Shown here piece after piece: positions 4,896-9,823 of a DNA stretch of 64,000 nt. The DNA lies in assembly GCA_045592625.1 (NCBI GenBank), contig JAZNVC010000001.1:136825-200824 (forward strand). Reading direction: 5' to 3'. Each line of letters begins with the position of its first letter. Positions within the stretch are counted from its first letter, which is position 1. Under the pieces are notes generated by a model. The model saw only the letters and a list, made by a program, of their open reading frames with translations. It ran no database searches and was not told the origin of the DNA. The position numbers and the translations under genes were made by a program. The stretch comes from Acutalibacteraceae bacterium. Lineage in GTDB: Bacteria; Bacillota; Clostridia; Oscillospirales; Acutalibacteraceae.

Positions 4896-5458
4896 TAGAA
4901 CTCAGTAATGTTACCTTTTCCTATAAAGGAAGCAAAGAAAAGGTATTAAAGGATTTTTCTCTTAAAATAAAGAAAGGTCAAAGAATATGGCTCAGCGGTG
5001 CTTCGGGCAGAGGCAAAACCACCGTACTTCGTCTTATAATGGGACTGGAAAAGGCAAAAAAAGGCAAAGTAAAAATAAATGAAGAGGCTGAAATTTCCGC
5101 CGTATTTCAAGAGGACAGACTGATTCCTTTTGTATCGGTAGAAAAAAACATTTCTCTTTTTTCAAATGAAGAAAAAGCACGAGAACTCCTTTTTGAACTT
5201 GGTCTAAAGGACACCGCCCAAATGTCTGTCAACTCTCTTTCGGGCGGTATGAAGCGAAGGGTTGCTTTGGCCAGGGCACTTTCAAAGGATTTTGATATAC
5301 TTCTTCTTGATGAAGCCTTAAACGGACTGGATGAAGAAACCAAAAACAAAACGGCTCAGGTAATAAATAAATATACCCAAAACAAAACAGTTATATTTGT
5401 TTCCCACAGCAAGACGGAAGCAGAACTTTTAAATGCACAAGAATTTAAACTTATATAA
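4892..5458 (+). CDS. ABC transporter ATP-binding protein (compact, 188 aa)
   Basis: Walker A GASGRGKTT, signature LSGGMKRR, Walker B ILLLDEA and an H-loop (VSHS). The start overlaps the permease stop (ATGA). Confidence 0.85.
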   Translation: MIELSNVTFSYKGSKEKVLKDFSLKIKKGQRIWLSGASGRGKTTVLRLIMGLEKAKKGKVKINEEAEISAVFQEDRLIPFVSVEKNISLFSNEEKARELLFELGLKDTAQMSVNSLSGGMKRRVALARALSKDFDILLLDEALNGLDEETKNKTAQVINKYTQNKTVIFVSHSKTEAELLNAQEFKLI

Positions 5459-5460
5459 AA

Positions 5461-5494
5461 ATAATCGCATCGAATTTTCGATGCGATTATTTTT
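5461..5494. terminator. Bidirectional terminator between the ABC operon and immA
   Basis: Hairpin aatcgcatcga-attt-tcgatgcgatt followed by a T-run. Confidence 0.7.
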
Positions 5495-5915
5495 CACAGT
5501 AATATTTTAAAACCTTTTCCATATAATGAACAGGTACCGAAAAATACTCGGCAAGGTCGCTTGTTGTGTAAACACCGTTTTTTATGGCTTCCTTTAATAG
5601 TTTAATGGGAACAAGAAAGTGAATAGCCCATTTTTCCGCTTTGTGCTCGATTTTTTGTCTTTCAAAATCAGAGCAGTCGCCGTCATAAAAGCCGCCGGTG
5701 GCAATATGCCCCATTTCGTGAGCAAGTACTACCCGTTCTTCACATTCTCTGCCGAAAACGGCAGGGTCAATACCAATATAACAGTCGTCACCAATATTAA
5801 CGGTGACGGCTTTATTTTTAGGAAGATTAAAGCTCATTACCTTTATACCTTCCTCCTCAGCAAGACGGTAAAGTTCACTAAGGGTTTTGCTCTTTATCGT
5901 AAATGAATTTTGCAT
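5487..5915 (-). CDS. ImmA/IrrE-family zinc metallopeptidase
   Basis: 142 aa with an HEMGH (HExxH) motif. It lies immediately downstream of, and overlaps, an XRE repressor gene, which is the classic ImmR/ImmA layout. Confidence 0.8.
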   Translation of the reverse strand: MQNSFTIKSKTLSELYRLAEEEGIKVMSFNLPKNKAVTVNIGDDCYIGIDPAVFGRECEERVVLAHEMGHIATGGFYDGDCSDFERQKIEHKAEKWAIHFLVPIKLLKEAIKNGVYTTSDLAEYFSVPVHYMEKVLKYYCEK

Positions 5916-6207
5916 AGCGTTTCACTTCTTCCCACATTTCGTCGGTTACGTCTTGGCTTCCTCCGAAAAGAGCAACCTTTAACTGATTTTCAATAATTTT
6001 TGAGTTTTTGCCTTCTAAAAGAAATTCTACACTAACCGAAAAAAATGAGGCAATTTTAGATAAAACTGAAGCGGAAAGGGCTTTGCTTCTGCCCATCTTA
6101 TAGTCTGAAAGGGTAGCACGGGGAATGGCACAATCTCTGCAAAGGTCGGTAACCGTTACTCCTTTATCCTTGCAAAGCGTTTCGATTCTTTCGTAAACCG
6201 TATCCAT
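5878..6207 (-). CDS. XRE-family helix-turn-helix transcriptional repressor
   Basis: I chose the start MDTVYERIETLCKDKGVTVTDLCRD at 6207 (RBS AGGTGGA). The 6327 start in the ORF track would run through the promoter region. HTH_3-type motif is present (TDLCRDCAIPRATLSDYKMG). Confidence 0.85.
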   Translation of the reverse strand: MDTVYERIETLCKDKGVTVTDLCRDCAIPRATLSDYKMGRSKALSASVLSKIASFFSVSVEFLLEGKNSKIIENQLKVALFGGSQDVTDEMWEEVKRYAKFIYDKEQNP

Positions 6208-6244
6208 AAATTTTCCACCTTTAGTAAAAATTTTTTGTAGGCAC

Positions 6245-6273
6245 TTGACAATTACGGATTTCCGTAATATAAT
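6245..6273 (+). promoter_or_regulatory. Consensus sigma-70 promoter of the Zn-ribbon/sigma-like/dinB operon, with a candidate operator in its spacer
   Basis: TTGACA (6245-6250), 17 nt, TATAAT (6268-6273). The palindrome ATTACGGA-TT-TCCGTAAT (6251-6268, 16 of 18 positions symmetric) fills the spacer and overlaps the first base of the -10 box. Confidence 0.7.
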
Positions 6274-6298
6274 AGAACATACGTTCGAGGACAAAAAC

Positions 6299-6327
6299 AT
6301 TATATAACCTTTTGTACTTGAAGTCAA
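6299..6327 (-). promoter_or_regulatory. Divergent promoter of the XRE-ImmA operon
   Basis: On the minus strand: TTGACT (6322-6327), 17 nt, TATAAT (6299-6304). Its transcript passes through the 6251-6268 palindrome before the XRE start. Confidence 0.6.
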
Positions 6328-6354
6328 GAAAAATTTTTACGGAGGTAAACAGCA

Positions 6355-6720
6355 TTGTATTATTGTTCGGATTGTCGGATGGAGTTTCAGTTCGCAAAGG
6401 TTTATTTTGAACCGACACCGAAGGGGAGTGAAAGACTTTTGCTCTGTCCATACTGTTCAGGGATGAATTACAGTGAAAAGCGGGGCAATTACTGCAGTTA
6501 TTGCGGACGTCCTACAGGACTGAGTGTCAGAAGATACTGTAGCGAGAGCTGTAAATCACAGGGCGAAAAAATGTTTGCAAAGCAAAAGGAGCAAGAAGAA
6601 AACAGAAGAAACAGCCCTTTATATAAAGCGGTTAATGAGGTGGACACCTACAATAAATACCACGGCTGTAATTTGAGCTACGGACAGTATTACGCATTAA
6701 AAGGAGCAGGGATTATATGA
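6355..6720 (+). CDS. Cysteine-rich zinc-ribbon protein, function unknown
   Basis: TTG start 9 nt after a GGAGG RBS. Four CxxC-type pairs are present (CSDC, CPYC, CSYC, CSESC). It is the first gene of the dinB operon. Confidence 0.6.
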   Translation: MYYCSDCRMEFQFAKVYFEPTPKGSERLLLCPYCSGMNYSEKRGNYCSYCGRPTGLSVRRYCSESCKSQGEKMFAKQKEQEENRRNSPLYKAVNEVDTYNKYHGCNLSYGQYYALKGAGII

Positions 6721-7052
6721 GGGAAATGTCGGTGGATGAAAAAAGAATTTATCTTGAACAGTATCCTCTCACATTGGCTGTTATTAACCGTTGCTATTTA
6801 CTGTCGGCTAAAAATGCCGATAAAAGCGAAAATTACAAAAGAAAAATGAATGAAGCGGTACTTCTTAGGGATTTTATTGAAAACGATATAGAAAAAATCG
6901 TCGATAAAGTAGAAAGCGAGGTATTGGCTCAAAAATATCTTTGCGGAAAAACCTTGGAAGAAACAGCCGTACTGCTTAACTACAGCAAACGGCAGGTGGA
7001 AAGAATTCATTTAAACGCACTGGAACATTTGGCACCGTCATACATTTGTTAA
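6717..7052 (+). CDS. Small sigma-70 region-4-like HTH protein (phage/ICE-type transcriptional regulator)
   Basis: 111 aa. The C-terminal KTLEETAVLLNYSKRQVERIHLNALEHL resembles a sigma region 4.2 HTH. The start overlaps the upstream stop (ATGA). Confidence 0.6.
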   Translation: MREMSVDEKRIYLEQYPLTLAVINRCYLLSAKNADKSENYKRKMNEAVLLRDFIENDIEKIVDKVESEVLAQKYLCGKTLEETAVLLNYSKRQVERIHLNALEHLAPSYIC

Positions 7053-7064
7053 AGGAGAATAAAA

Positions 7065-8282
7065 ATGGAACGTACAATACTTCATTGTGACCTTAATAAC
7101 TTTTTTGCATCGGTAAGTCTTCTTTATAATCAGACCTTTTACGGACAACCTGTTGCAGTTGCAGGAAGTGTGGAACAACGTCACGGAATAATACTTGCAA
7201 AAAATGAAATAGCTAAAAAATTCGGAGTAAAAACAGCAGAACCTATATGGAAGGCAAAGCAAAAATGTGCGGGACTGATTATTTTACCGCCTATTTACGA
7301 TAAGTACGAAGAATTTTCCATAAAGGCAAGAGAAATTTATCACCGCTATACCGATATGGTAGAGCCCTTTGGAATGGACGAATGTTGGCTCGACGTTACG
7401 GGAAGTAATCTTCTTTTCGGTGACGGTAAAACCATAGCCCAAAAAATAATGCGTGATATAAAAGAAGAACTGGGCATAACCGCCTCAGTTGGAGTAAGTT
7501 TTAATAAGGTTTTTGCAAAGCTTGGAAGCGATATGAAAAAGCCTGAAGGACTAACGGTCATAAGCAAAGAAAATTTTAAAGAAAAAATATATTCTCTGCC
7601 TGTAAGCGATCTTCTTTTTGTGGGAAACAGCACAGCGTCAAAACTTATGAGCAGAGGAATATTTACCATAGGCGATATAACCCTTGCGGGAGATGAAATG
7701 CTGAGCAAAATCCTTGGTAAAAACGGCATAATGCTTAAAAAATGTGCTATGGGACTGGACGACAGTGCGGTGATTACTCCAAAGAAGACAGACCACCCCA
7801 AAAGCGTGGGACGTTCACGCACCCTATCGGAAGATTTTGAGGATTTGGATGAGGTTTTCAGAGAACTGCTCTTTTACGGAGAAGAAATCGCCGAAAATTT
7901 GAGGGAAAAAGAGGTTTATGCAACAGGAGTCACCCTTATTATAAGAGATACCGATTTAAAAACCAACGAATATGCAATAAGGATAGATTCGGGAACACAA
8001 ACGGGAATTACTCTGGCACGAACGGCAATGAATCTTTTTAAAGAGCACGGGAAACTGCCCTGCCGAAGTGTAGGACTAAGGGCAACAAGACTTAAAGAGG
8101 GAGACGCAAATATACAGCTTGATATGTTTAGTTCTTGCGATGATGAGGATAAACTTTTAAAAATAGAACAGCAAATAAGCAGTATTTGTGCCCGTTTCGG
8201 AAAAAATGCCGTAGTAAGAGGCTCTCTGCTTTTTAAAAACAAAAACCTCTCTCCCGGCTTTAAGCCACCCTATTGCAAATAA
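7065..8282 (+). CDS. dinB: Y-family DNA polymerase IV
   Basis: 405 aa. N-terminal ILHCDLNNFFASV, plus the SIDE-like MDECWLDVTG and GVS.NK..AK.GSD motifs. Confidence 0.93.
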   Translation: MERTILHCDLNNFFASVSLLYNQTFYGQPVAVAGSVEQRHGIILAKNEIAKKFGVKTAEPIWKAKQKCAGLIILPPIYDKYEEFSIKAREIYHRYTDMVEPFGMDECWLDVTGSNLLFGDGKTIAQKIMRDIKEELGITASVGVSFNKVFAKLGSDMKKPEGLTVISKENFKEKIYSLPVSDLLFVGNSTASKLMSRGIFTIGDITLAGDEMLSKILGKNGIMLKKCAMGLDDSAVITPKKTDHPKSVGRSRTLSEDFEDLDEVFRELLFYGEEIAENLREKEVYATGVTLIIRDTDLKTNEYAIRIDSGTQTGITLARTAMNLFKEHGKLPCRSVGLRATRLKEGDANIQLDMFSSCDDEDKLLKIEQQISSICARFGKNAVVRGSLLFKNKNLSPGFKPPYCK

Positions 8283-8314
8283 GAGATTTTTATTTATTAT
8301 TCATATTAAAAAAA

Positions 8315-8338
8315 CCTCTGTGCATACCGGCACAGAGG
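8315..8338. terminator. Hairpin 1: terminator for dinB, and a stronger one on the minus strand
   Basis: cctctgtgc-ataccg-gcacagagg. An A7 run lies upstream, which reads as T7 on the minus strand. tcaaatttt follows downstream. Confidence 0.7.
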
Positions 8339-8344
8339 TCAAAT

Positions 8345-8366
8345 TTTCGTTTATTACCCACATAAA
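8345..8366. repeat. Left inverted repeat, copy 1 (IRL1)
   Basis: tttcgtttattacccacataaa is a perfect 22-nt reverse complement of 9802-9823. Weaker similarity extends outward (ggtca...). Confidence 0.9.
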
Positions 8367-8380
8367 TGAAGCACAAAAAC

Positions 8381-8404
8381 CCTCCGTGCATATCGGCACA
8401 GAGG
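8381..8404. terminator. Hairpin 2: duplicated copy of hairpin 1
   Basis: cctccgtgc-atatcg-gcacagagg with one mismatch. aaaaa lies upstream, which reads as a T-run on the minus strand. Confidence 0.55.
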
Positions 8405-8410
8405 TAAAAG

Positions 8411-8435
8411 TTTCATTTATTACCCACATAAACGA
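8411..8435. repeat. Left inverted repeat, copy 2 (IRL2)
   Basis: tttcatttattacccacataaacga matches the reverse complement of 9799-9823 at 24 of 25 positions. Confidence 0.9.
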
Positions 8436-8482
8436 CAGCGAAAACAGATGCATTGGTAAAATATTCCGTAGTCGCGGGTAAC

Positions 8483-8511
8483 ATTATGACACAATAATGC
8501 CGATTTGTCAA
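8483..8511 (-). promoter_or_regulatory. Near-consensus extended -10 promoter inside the IR-bracketed segment, pointing outward to the left
   Basis: The minus strand reads TTGACA (8506-8511), 17 nt, TGtCATAAT (-10 at 8483-8488). No gene lies downstream in this orientation; the transcript meets only IRL2, hairpin 2, IRL1 and hairpin 1. Confidence 0.6.
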
Positions 8512-8633
8512 TACAAAATGCATAATTTTGCAGATTTTTTTCAGTATTGACACAAATTTTAATACATTTGGGATTATTTATGGTCAATTTTGCCGTCAAA
8601 ATATACTTATAGCACGAAGGGATGTAAAGAACA

Positions 8634-9734
8634 GTGTCACGAAGAGGAGAATGTATCTACAAAAGGAAAGATGGTAGATGGGAGGCTCGGTATGTTAAGG
8701 AATTAGGTATCGACGGAAGGAAAAAATATGCCTCAATTTATGCTCCGACATATAAAGAAGCTAAAGAAAAACAAATGTACGCTATGCATAATATTGCTAA
8801 AAAATTAACAATATCGGCAAAATTATGCATAAAAGATATTACTTATGAGTGGCTTTTAAGTATTAAAAGTCGAATTAAGCCGTCCAGTTATATTAAATAC
8901 GAAAATATGTGCAAAAATCATATAATTAAGAATTTGGGAAATATTCCTCTTAATGATATAAACTCGGTGACAGTGCAAAAGTTCACAATGTTTCTTAAAG
9001 AAAACGGACGAATAGACGGAGGTAAACTATCTGATAAAACAATAAACGACATACTTATTATATTAAGCCTTATATTCAGATATGCCGAAGAACATCATTC
9101 TGCAAATCTTCCTCATATAAAAGGGGTAAGGCAAGAGAAAAAAGAGGCAAGAGTGCTTTCAAACGAAGAACAGAAGCGGCTTTGTGCCTATTGTATTAAT
9201 GACACCGATAGTTATAAATTTTCGATTTTACTTGCACTTTATACAGGAATCAGAATAGGAGAATTATGTGCTCTTAAATGGCAGGACATAACCGACACCT
9301 ATATAATAATAGATAAAACTATGCAGCGTCTTAAAACCGATAACGGAGAGACAGACATTTTTGTCACCAGTCCTAAAAGCGATTGTTCTAAGCGAATAAT
9401 ACCGTTGCCTGAATTTTTAAAAGAAACCATAAATAAAAGGCGAAAGGATGACGGATATGTACTTGCAACCGCCAGAAGTCCTTACTGTGAACCTAGGACA
9501 ATGCAACATCGATTTAAAGAAACGGCAGAACTCCTAAACTTGGAGGGGGTTACCTTTCATACCTTAAGGCATACATTTGCTACTCGTTGTGTAGAAGCAG
9601 GTTTTGATATTAAAACTCTTTCGGAAATACTTGGGCATTCTGACGTTAAAGTAACCTTAAACAGATATGTTCATTCTTCCTTTGAATTAAAGCAAAAAAA
9701 TATGCAAAAGCTGATGTTTATAGATTTTGTTTAA
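8634..9734 (+). CDS. Tyrosine site-specific recombinase (phage-integrase family)
   Basis: 366 aa with a GTG start. N-terminal arm-type motif YKRKDGRWEARY. C-terminal catalytic region has R..GE..AL.W, HTLRHTFAT and LGHSDVKVTLNRYVH (the R-H-R-Y set). Confidence 0.9.
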   Translation: MSRRGECIYKRKDGRWEARYVKELGIDGRKKYASIYAPTYKEAKEKQMYAMHNIAKKLTISAKLCIKDITYEWLLSIKSRIKPSSYIKYENMCKNHIIKNLGNIPLNDINSVTVQKFTMFLKENGRIDGGKLSDKTINDILIILSLIFRYAEEHHSANLPHIKGVRQEKKEARVLSNEEQKRLCAYCINDTDSYKFSILLALYTGIRIGELCALKWQDITDTYIIIDKTMQRLKTDNGETDIFVTSPKSDCSKRIIPLPEFLKETINKRRKDDGYVLATARSPYCEPRTMQHRFKETAELLNLEGVTFHTLRHTFATRCVEAGFDIKTLSEILGHSDVKVTLNRYVHSSFELKQKNMQKLMFIDFV

Positions 9735-9746
9735 ATGGTCAAAAAA

Positions 9747-9792
9747 ATGGTAAGAACAGAGAGAAGCTCTCTTGTTTTCTTACCATTTTTTA
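9747..9792 (+). terminator. Terminator after the recombinase gene
   Basis: ggtaagaacagagag..ctctcttgttttcttacc hairpin followed by a long T-run. Confidence 0.7.
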
Positions 9793-9798
9793 TTTTTT

Positions 9799-9823
9799 TC
9801 GTTTATGTGGGTAATAAACGAAA
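9799..9823. repeat. Right inverted repeat (IRR)
   Basis: tcgtttatgtgggtaataaacgaaa is the reverse complement of IRL1 and IRL2 (see those entries). Confidence 0.9.

Follow-up and report, generated by a model that had tools for sequence, protein, structure and literature searches.

The window, as we call the whole 64,000-nucleotide stretch analysed here, is part of contig JAZNVC010000001.1 of an Acutalibacteraceae bacterium (assembly GCA_045592625.1, positions 136,825–200,824, forward strand). At 5487–8282 it contains a repressor–protease gene pair, xre–immA, that diverges from an operon, znr–sigl–polY, ending in the gene for a Y-family DNA polymerase. The explanation that best fits the locus as a whole, and to which we give somewhat better than even credence, is a chromosomal XRE/ImmA switch that together with LexA places a double lock on the polymerase operon. 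The gene set and the coordinates of immA, xre, znr, sigl and the polymerase gene had been proposed from the letters of the DNA alone (the sequence-only reading) and were borne out by open reading frame and domain searches. The features that carry the argument are the following.

immA, 5487–5915, minus strand: M78/COG2856 zinc metallopeptidase of 142 amino acids (aa) with an HEMGH motif and a downstream AEKWA motif
xre, 5878–6207, minus strand: Cro/C1-type helix-turn-helix (HTH) repressor of 109 aa with a conserved C-terminal tail, LKVALFGG...VTDEMWEEV
P_znr, 6245–6273, plus strand: sigma-A promoter TTGACA-17-TATAAT, 12/12 consensus positions, driving znr–sigl–polY
O1, 6251–6268, no strand: predicted XRE operator ATTACGGATTTCCGTAAT, composed as ATTACGGA-TT-TCCGTAAT, filling the P_znr spacer and lying within the leader of the xre transcript
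LexA box, 6274–6287, no strand: predicted LexA (Cheo) box AGAACATACGTTCG, AGAAC-ATAC-GTTCG, directly 3′ of the P_znr −10
P_xre, 6299–6327, minus strand: promoter TTGACT-17-TATAAT, 11/12 consensus positions, facing P_znr
znr, 6355–6720, plus strand: protein of 121 aa with two zinc ribbons (eight invariant Cys) and a three-helix C-terminal domain (LSYGQYYALK)
sigl, 6717–7052, plus strand: protein of 111 aa with a helical hairpin and a sigma-70 region-4 HTH, without region 2
polY ('dinB'), 7065–8282, plus strand: Y-family polymerase of 405 aa (IMS 1.2e-40, IMS_C 9.4e-19)

The divergent promoters and the predicted XRE operator

The two promoters of the module are oriented towards each other. Their predicted starts, at ∼6280 on the plus strand and ∼6292 on the minus strand, are only ∼12 nucleotides (nt) apart, so that they stand face to face with overlapping RNA polymerase footprints and not back to back. 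P_znr is conserved at all related loci, and the hexamers of P_xre are kept in relatives. The spacer of P_znr accommodates the palindrome O1, which had been picked out in the sequence-only reading and is indeed present, once, in the 64-kb window; 0.25 occurrences are expected by chance at up to 3 mismatches.

The synteny survey suggested together with that reading was run as three scans of one-genome-per-species contigs. The four-gene core immA–xre/znr–sigl was recovered in 25 further genomes (26 with the window), and the polymerase gene follows it in 20. An ATTAC-N8-GTAAT operator is found in the P_znr spacer in all 26; its sequence shifts with the lineage, and its form and positions are kept. 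Outgroup loci have up to four operators, located upstream of the −35, in the P_znr spacer, just 3′ of the −10 and in the P_xre spacer. Within the clade of the window the spacer operator alone survives, and the downstream position is now occupied by the LexA box.

The polymerase gene has been split from the operon by an inserted gene in locus L142 and by a terminator in locus L143. Both uncoupled genes have their own promoter of the form TTGACA-ATTACGAAAAACCGCAAT-ATAAT with a further operator upstream. No other observation speaks as strongly for selection on XRE control of the polymerase as this duplication of the operator–promoter design. From these sequence features, XRE very probably controls the operon. 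The earlier proposal that an ImmR/ImmA-type pair is wired to a polymerase operon is upheld by the position of O1 in a 12/12 promoter spacer, by its conservation in 26 genomes and by the duplicates in L142 and L143.

In the mechanism that we propose, an XRE dimer bound to the 18-bp operator in the P_znr spacer would block transcription of znr–sigl–polY. The P_xre transcript crosses both operators, and because P_xre reads through them, xre–immA would be weakly autoregulated. The facing promoters would exclude each other, which would favour switch-like firing. As to control at the RNA level, no Rfam family was found in 5300–8700 and the two leaders are not unusually well folded (z-scores −0.9 and −1.5).

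The predicted LexA box

According to the sequence-only reading no LexA box was evident and the module was a candidate for LexA-independent induction. The first statement does not hold, as AGAACATACGTTCG lies at 6274–6287 and has been kept in 11 genomes. It spans the site where P_znr is predicted to start and, on the xre transcript, positions ∼+5 to +18. In Bacillus and Clostridia the operator of LexA is GAAC-N4-GTTC (PMC4234289), of which this is the sole exact occurrence in the window. The arms AGAAC and GTTCG are invariant in the 11 genomes, and the six centres encountered (ATAC, AAGT, ATGT, ATGC, AAAT and GAAT) all fit the RNRY rule of Cheo boxes. No second GAAC-RNRY-GTTC occurs in ∼220 kb of loci from the clade. 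In a tree built from ImmA, XRE and the znr product, all loci with a LexA box fall into one clade with 99/98 support. The L135/L137 lineage, which has no box, is nested inside this clade, implying one gain and one loss. We consider the box at 6274–6287 likely, on its position and conservation, to be a real LexA site.

Full expression of the operon would then probably require both that LexA cleaves itself under stimulation by RecA and that the co-transcribed ImmA removes XRE. Such AND logic would amount to a double lock on a mutagenic polymerase. In the window the polymerase is thus probably double-locked and not LexA-independent, with a Cheo box placed over its predicted transcription start. 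The claim of LexA independence may still apply to the ancestral form of the module, since the deeper relatives L141–L144 have XRE operators only; the putative LexA control would have been gained in the clade of the window. The two inputs are variously mixed across the family, as in locus L146 an internal promoter, TAGACA-17-TATAAT, precedes the polymerase gene and is itself followed by a LexA-like box, GAACATTTGTTT. LexA itself would be expected in this lineage on general grounds. A Bacillus subtilis LexA probe gave no match in the window or in those related loci that were searched with it, and the large protein search gave Bacillus only.

Several observations weigh against the double lock. 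The number of boxes is not above chance: the sole match to CGAAC-N4-GTTCG with one mismatch compares with 1.18 expected, and the weight given to the box comes from its position and conservation and not from its count. Its right arm, GTTCG, overlaps the left half of the older downstream XRE operator, so its conservation could be partly inherited from that operator. Three close relatives (L030/L135, L136 and L107/L137) have GTTCGG without GAAC. The sequence of the locus was found in gut-metagenome DNA runs only, which gives no evidence of expression. Finally, ImmA has no GAF domain, the domain that helps to build the single-stranded DNA (ssDNA)-binding groove in CapP and IrrE.

The overlap of the right arm with the old operator and the three relatives that have GTTCGG without GAAC also speak for control by XRE and ImmA alone. 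In that case GAAC-N4-GTTC would combine a relic of the old operator with conservation of the first transcribed bases, making the module LexA-independent, as is suggested by the polymerase operons of the outgroups L141–L144 with their XRE operators only. We find this quite unlikely. In the subclade of the window the remainder of the old operator has decayed, but AGAAC-N4-GTTCG is intact. All six centre variants obey RNRY, neither the window nor the loci of the clade contain a second such box, the motif is an established LexA operator in Bacillus and Clostridia (PMC4234289) and Y-family polymerases are classic SOS genes.

The repressor–protease pair and its relatives

The two genes of the repressor–protease pair overlap by 38 nt on the same strand. 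ImmA is matched by PF06114 (Peptidase_M78) at 42.5 bits (cut-off 22; E 6.7e-11) and by phrog_87, a 'metallo-protease' family, at 3e-26. It consists of the peptidase domain only, without a GAF-like domain, and has a size similar to that of the GAF-less ImmA of ICEBs1. The PADLOC capP profile (3.9e-7) accordingly covers the peptidase part alone (profile positions 23–140 of 242). The motifs HE[ML]GH and AExWA are invariant across 22 orthologues. For xre the true start is the ATG at 6207, which has GGTGGA ahead of it; an upstream TTG is not used. Its product matches HTH_26 (5.7e-11) and HTH_3, the PADLOC capH profile over its full length (1.3e-8, positions 9–100 of 103) and, weakly, DdrO and SinR. 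The tail LKxA[LF]FGG...T..M is invariant among the 22 orthologues. Family searches with XRE gave HTH families only, with no S24 self-cleavage domain.

The closest parallel is ImmR/ImmA of B. subtilis ICEBs1, together with c-phi105/ImmA of phage phi105. These likewise pair an XRE repressor with a small GAF-less COG2856 protease of the HEXXH type, and the ImmR/ImmA pair is co-transcribed and divergent from the genes that it represses. In systems of this type DNA damage is described as leading to proteolysis of the repressor, and the ImmA of ICEBs1 responds via RecA or RapI according to the summary in bioRxiv 10.1101/2022.04.27.489752. The pair studied here differs in being chromosomal and outside mobile elements, in having a polymerase operon as its target in place of excision and transfer genes and in the LexA box on the target promoter; cleavage of the repressor is predicted only.

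CapH/CapP is matched at the level of both proteins, XRE over the full length of capH and ImmA over the peptidase domain of capP. CapP is a metallopeptidase with a C-terminal GAF domain and binds ssDNA in a groove between the two domains. Activated by ssDNA, it cuts CapH in the C-terminal dimerization helix, and DNA damage switches on the operon (bioRxiv 10.1101/2022.04.27.489752). ImmA from the window is without the GAF domain, and the switch has a polymerase operon as cargo in place of an immune system. The two profile matches could indicate that the XRE/COG2856 pair is a toxin–antitoxin (TA)-like or defence-regulator pair comparable to CapH/CapP of CBASS (antiphage signalling based on cyclic oligonucleotides), unrelated to repair and coincidental in its position. 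Xre–COG2856 appears as a predicted TA-like module in Makarova et al. 2009 (PMC2701414). We regard such a coincidence as next to negligible, given that no defence genes are adjacent, that the promoter of the divergent operon contains operators in 26/26 genomes and that the uncoupled polymerase gene has duplicates of them.

DdrO/IrrE (PprI) of Deinococcus is also a chromosomal pair of an XRE repressor and an M78 protease. It controls DNA-repair genes upon damage, in some species beside a LexA system (PMC8072749). The regulon of DdrO comprises ∼20 genes recognized via the RDRM (radiation/desiccation response motif), and IrrE carries a GAF-like domain. The module described here differs in serving one operon (perhaps gyrA too), in using another operator and in having a single promoter with sites for both LexA and XRE.

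The sequence-only reading named the streptococcal hdiR–umuC cassette as the closest analogue. This comparison is apt with respect to function and fails with respect to the type of repressor, as HdiR is a repressor of the self-cleaving S24 type and XRE lacks such a domain. Both hdiR–umuC and the LexA-regulated yqjW/uvrX–yolD operons of Bacillus resemble the module in placing a dedicated repressor or SOS box before an operon for a UmuC-like polymerase and small proteins (PMC6511836). The small proteins in our case are a zinc-ribbon and a sigma-4-like protein and are not of the YolD/UmuD type. Neighbours such as XRE, ImmA or sigma-like proteins go unmentioned in the same account of Y-family polymerase diversity (PMC6511836). 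Aravind, Anand and Iyer (2013) noted a DUF955 (M78) zincin-like peptidase near DinB/ImuB-C genes and predicted an SOS link (PMC3765255). Their observation concerns the gene neighbourhood only and includes no operators, LexA/XRE hybrid promoter, znr–sigl pair or clade-level history. The M78–DinB association was therefore already known; particular to the present module are the hybrid XRE-plus-LexA promoter, the znr–sigl core cargo, the duplicated operator–promoter and the operator copy in gyrA described below.

Judged at the level of sequence, the module has the defining features of ImmR/ImmA, DdrO/IrrE and CapH/CapP except for the GAF sensor domain. Whether ImmA is triggered by DNA damage appears to us evenly balanced.

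Two features probably close the two operons.

inverted repeat, 5457–5494, no strand: perfect 18-nt arms (100% complementary) with a 2-nt gap, between an ABC-transporter ATPase gene and immA; probably a bidirectional terminator ending the xre–immA operon
two G+C-rich hairpins, 8313–8404, no strand: 3′ of polY; probably terminate the operon and are also part of the adjoining invertible cassette

The cargo genes and the history of the module

The polymerase had been labelled DinB. That it belongs to the Y family is confirmed by the IMS and IMS_C domains, and the catalytic residues Asp9 and Asp104–Glu105, a Phe–Phe pair at 13–14 and a clamp-binding motif, QLDMF, can be read from its sequence. Its closest solved relative is a Pol IV (PDB entry 7yll, 1e-49). 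All ten NCBIfam Pol IV models nevertheless score below their equivalog cut-offs (best PRK03103, 319 bits versus 381), and the C-terminal tail, KIEQQISSICARFGKNAVVRGSLL, is UmuC/YqjW-like. Such tails have been described for UmuC, YqjW and YqjH (PMC6511836). Because of the missed cut-off and of this tail, 'dinB' is only an approximate name.

The znr gene starts with TTG, preceded by GGAGG. Its product has no family above threshold in the domain search, and fold searches were uninformative: matches in the PDB all have E > 1, and those in BFVD are weak and involve uncharacterised zinc-ribbon proteins of gut phages. An exhaustive profile search matched ∼50 representative clusters over roughly the full length and many proteins of ∼80 aa that contain the second ribbon and the C-terminal domain only. 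Among the latter, P0071, P0073, P0084, P0089 and P0097 combine a treble-clef/NinG-like zinc finger with the znr C-terminal domain (...EYNKxHGTxLSYGQY...). These short proteins look like a wider family outside the coverage of Pfam.

The start codon of sigl overlaps the stop codon of znr (ATGA). The Sigma70_r4 model scores 23.7 bits, slightly below its cut-off of 24.1, and the structural model (predicted local distance difference test, pLDDT, 94) superposes on region 4 of SigD, SigE and SigL with a root-mean-square deviation of 1.4–2 Å. Region 4 alone is matched, with no match to sigma-70 region 2, so that the protein is not a sigma factor. YolD (PF08863) matches neither znr nor sigl, and searches of phage records, plasmid records and viral contigs gave no match to either of them. 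In P0041 (234 aa, L153 2077–2781), one of the hits of the profile search, the two proteins are naturally fused into a single chain. There is no xre or immA beside P0041; some 5 kb downstream of it, the opposite strand carries a gene for a Y-family polymerase.

All carriers of the core are metagenome-assembled genomes (MAGs) from gut or rumen assigned to Acutalibacteraceae, Oscillospiraceae or 'Clostridia'. Beyond the 20 loci with the polymerase gene 3′ of sigl, the gene is absent in five (L145 and L148–L151), and one locus, which reaches the contig end, is not judgeable. The polymerase-less loci form one clade in the ImmA–XRE–znr tree. The fusion, the overlap between the znr stop and the sigl start and the loci without a polymerase gene all suggest that znr and sigl work jointly and predate the polymerase as cargo of the switch, which the polymerase joined later.

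The same findings are compatible with a module whose main output is a znr/sigl transcription factor for other genes, the polymerase being a late passenger with incidental regulation. The sigma region-4 fold of sigl, which binds DNA and RNA polymerase, would suit such a role, as would the fusion in P0041 and the five genomes that keep immA–xre/znr–sigl with no polymerase gene. We hold this to be possible, if on the unlikely side. The polymerase gene is attached in 20/26 genomes, and the uncoupled genes of L142 and L143 kept or regained an XRE-operated promoter, which argues for selection on polymerase control. A znr/sigl factor would in any case complement the double lock more than compete with it.

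The module is chromosomal and vertically inherited. Its left flank, crp followed by an ABC transporter, is syntenic in close relatives: module and flank occur together in 8/9 loci, and the contig of the ninth ends upstream. Beyond the close relatives the core is surrounded by housekeeping genes, in at least three further contexts, and its vicinity is free of mobile-element genes.

On the other side of the module, ∼350 nt 3′ of the polymerase gene, a tyrosine recombinase gene is found at 8634–9734 within the segment 8345–9823. It is bracketed by inverted repeats (8345–8379 and 8411–8450 versus 9784–9823), and its orientation in L001, L002 and L134 is opposite to that in the window, L004 and L005. 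With its own inverted repeats and either orientation, it is part of an invertible switch upstream of a sipW/TasA-like operon. It does not adjoin the module in L006–L009.

The proximity of this recombinase gene, and the fact that XRE/ImmA pairs are typical of phages and integrative and conjugative elements, could be taken to mean that the stretch from immA to the integrase (5487–9823) is a decayed integrative element or prophage remnant, with XRE/ImmA as its immunity system and the polymerase as cargo. We consider this very improbable and rejected a mobile-element reading of the module. The recombinase belongs to a separate invertible cassette, that of the sipW operon, and is not beside the module in L006–L009. 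The neighbours of the module are housekeeping genes in four chromosomal contexts, with no mobile-element genes nearby, and znr and sigl are unmatched in the phage, plasmid and viral-contig collections.

A scan with the O1 18-mer gave a second match, inside gyrA, in several MAGs that carry the module. The gyrA genes were then compared across 13 close relatives, fetched by protein similarity without any condition on the DNA sequence. In 13/13 the site reads ATT ACG GAW TTC CGT AAT, encoding I-T-[D/E]-F-R-N at GyrA residues ∼637–642; in one of the 13 genes the last codon is AAC. The copy, which reproduces the XRE operator exactly (ATTACGGAWTTCCGTAAT), lies at nt 832–849 of L156–L167 and L225, and is also found in L057, L059, L065, L069, L072, L078, L113 and L118. 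In contig 22 of JAZRNY it is located ∼80 kb from the module.

At synonymous sites the conservation of the copy greatly exceeds that of the sequence around it. Only 13.5% of gyrA third positions are invariant across the 13 genomes, and with the centre codon masked only 3/596 in-frame windows in 1.8 kb of gyrA are equally conserved. Outgroups that use other operators have ITDFMH at this site and no palindrome. The simplest reading is a second XRE site; formally, the xre leader and the gyrA mRNA could instead share an RNA hairpin. Another part of gyrA, around the GyrA-box region (...REDDMIENMMTCS), at nt 577–605 of L156–L167 and L225, is also nearly invariant in nucleotide sequence across the 13 genomes.

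The 18-mer ATTACGGATTTCCGTAAT has at least 118 genome matches in all, mostly due to chance or unrelated, which is about the chance level for the 596-Gb collection. In Chryseobacterium (L010, L019, L022, L038, L044, L052 and others) it is embedded in a conserved context, ...tttcgggcattacaaagtagatgattttcaatca...ATTACGGATTTCCGTAAT..., and is probably an unrelated conserved element. In a Lachnospiraceae MAG (L017, 3045–3091) the design TTGACA-ATTACGGAATTCCGTATT-ATAAT is present upstream of the gene for a 988-aa surface protein, with no module genes within the 5.2-kb locus.

Taken together with the gyrA copy, XRE/ImmA could be the master of a small damage regulon beside LexA, with a znr/sigl factor as the original cargo, an operator in gyrA and LexA control added in the clade of the window. 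This view is unlikely enough to be offered as tentative. If it is true, the switch could couple translesion synthesis to gyrase expression, and the gain of LexA control would have produced a two-key promoter.

Error-prone polymerases are a driving force behind mutation under stress and behind the evolution of antibiotic resistance, and their licensing in anaerobic gut Firmicutes is almost unstudied. The module would represent a phage-style repressor/protease switch that the chromosome has retained and that is now coupled to a translesion polymerase. Its relatives may provide a natural series for the combination of damage sensors, from XRE only, through XRE and LexA on one promoter, to an uncoupled polymerase gene with its own duplicate of the XRE-operated promoter.

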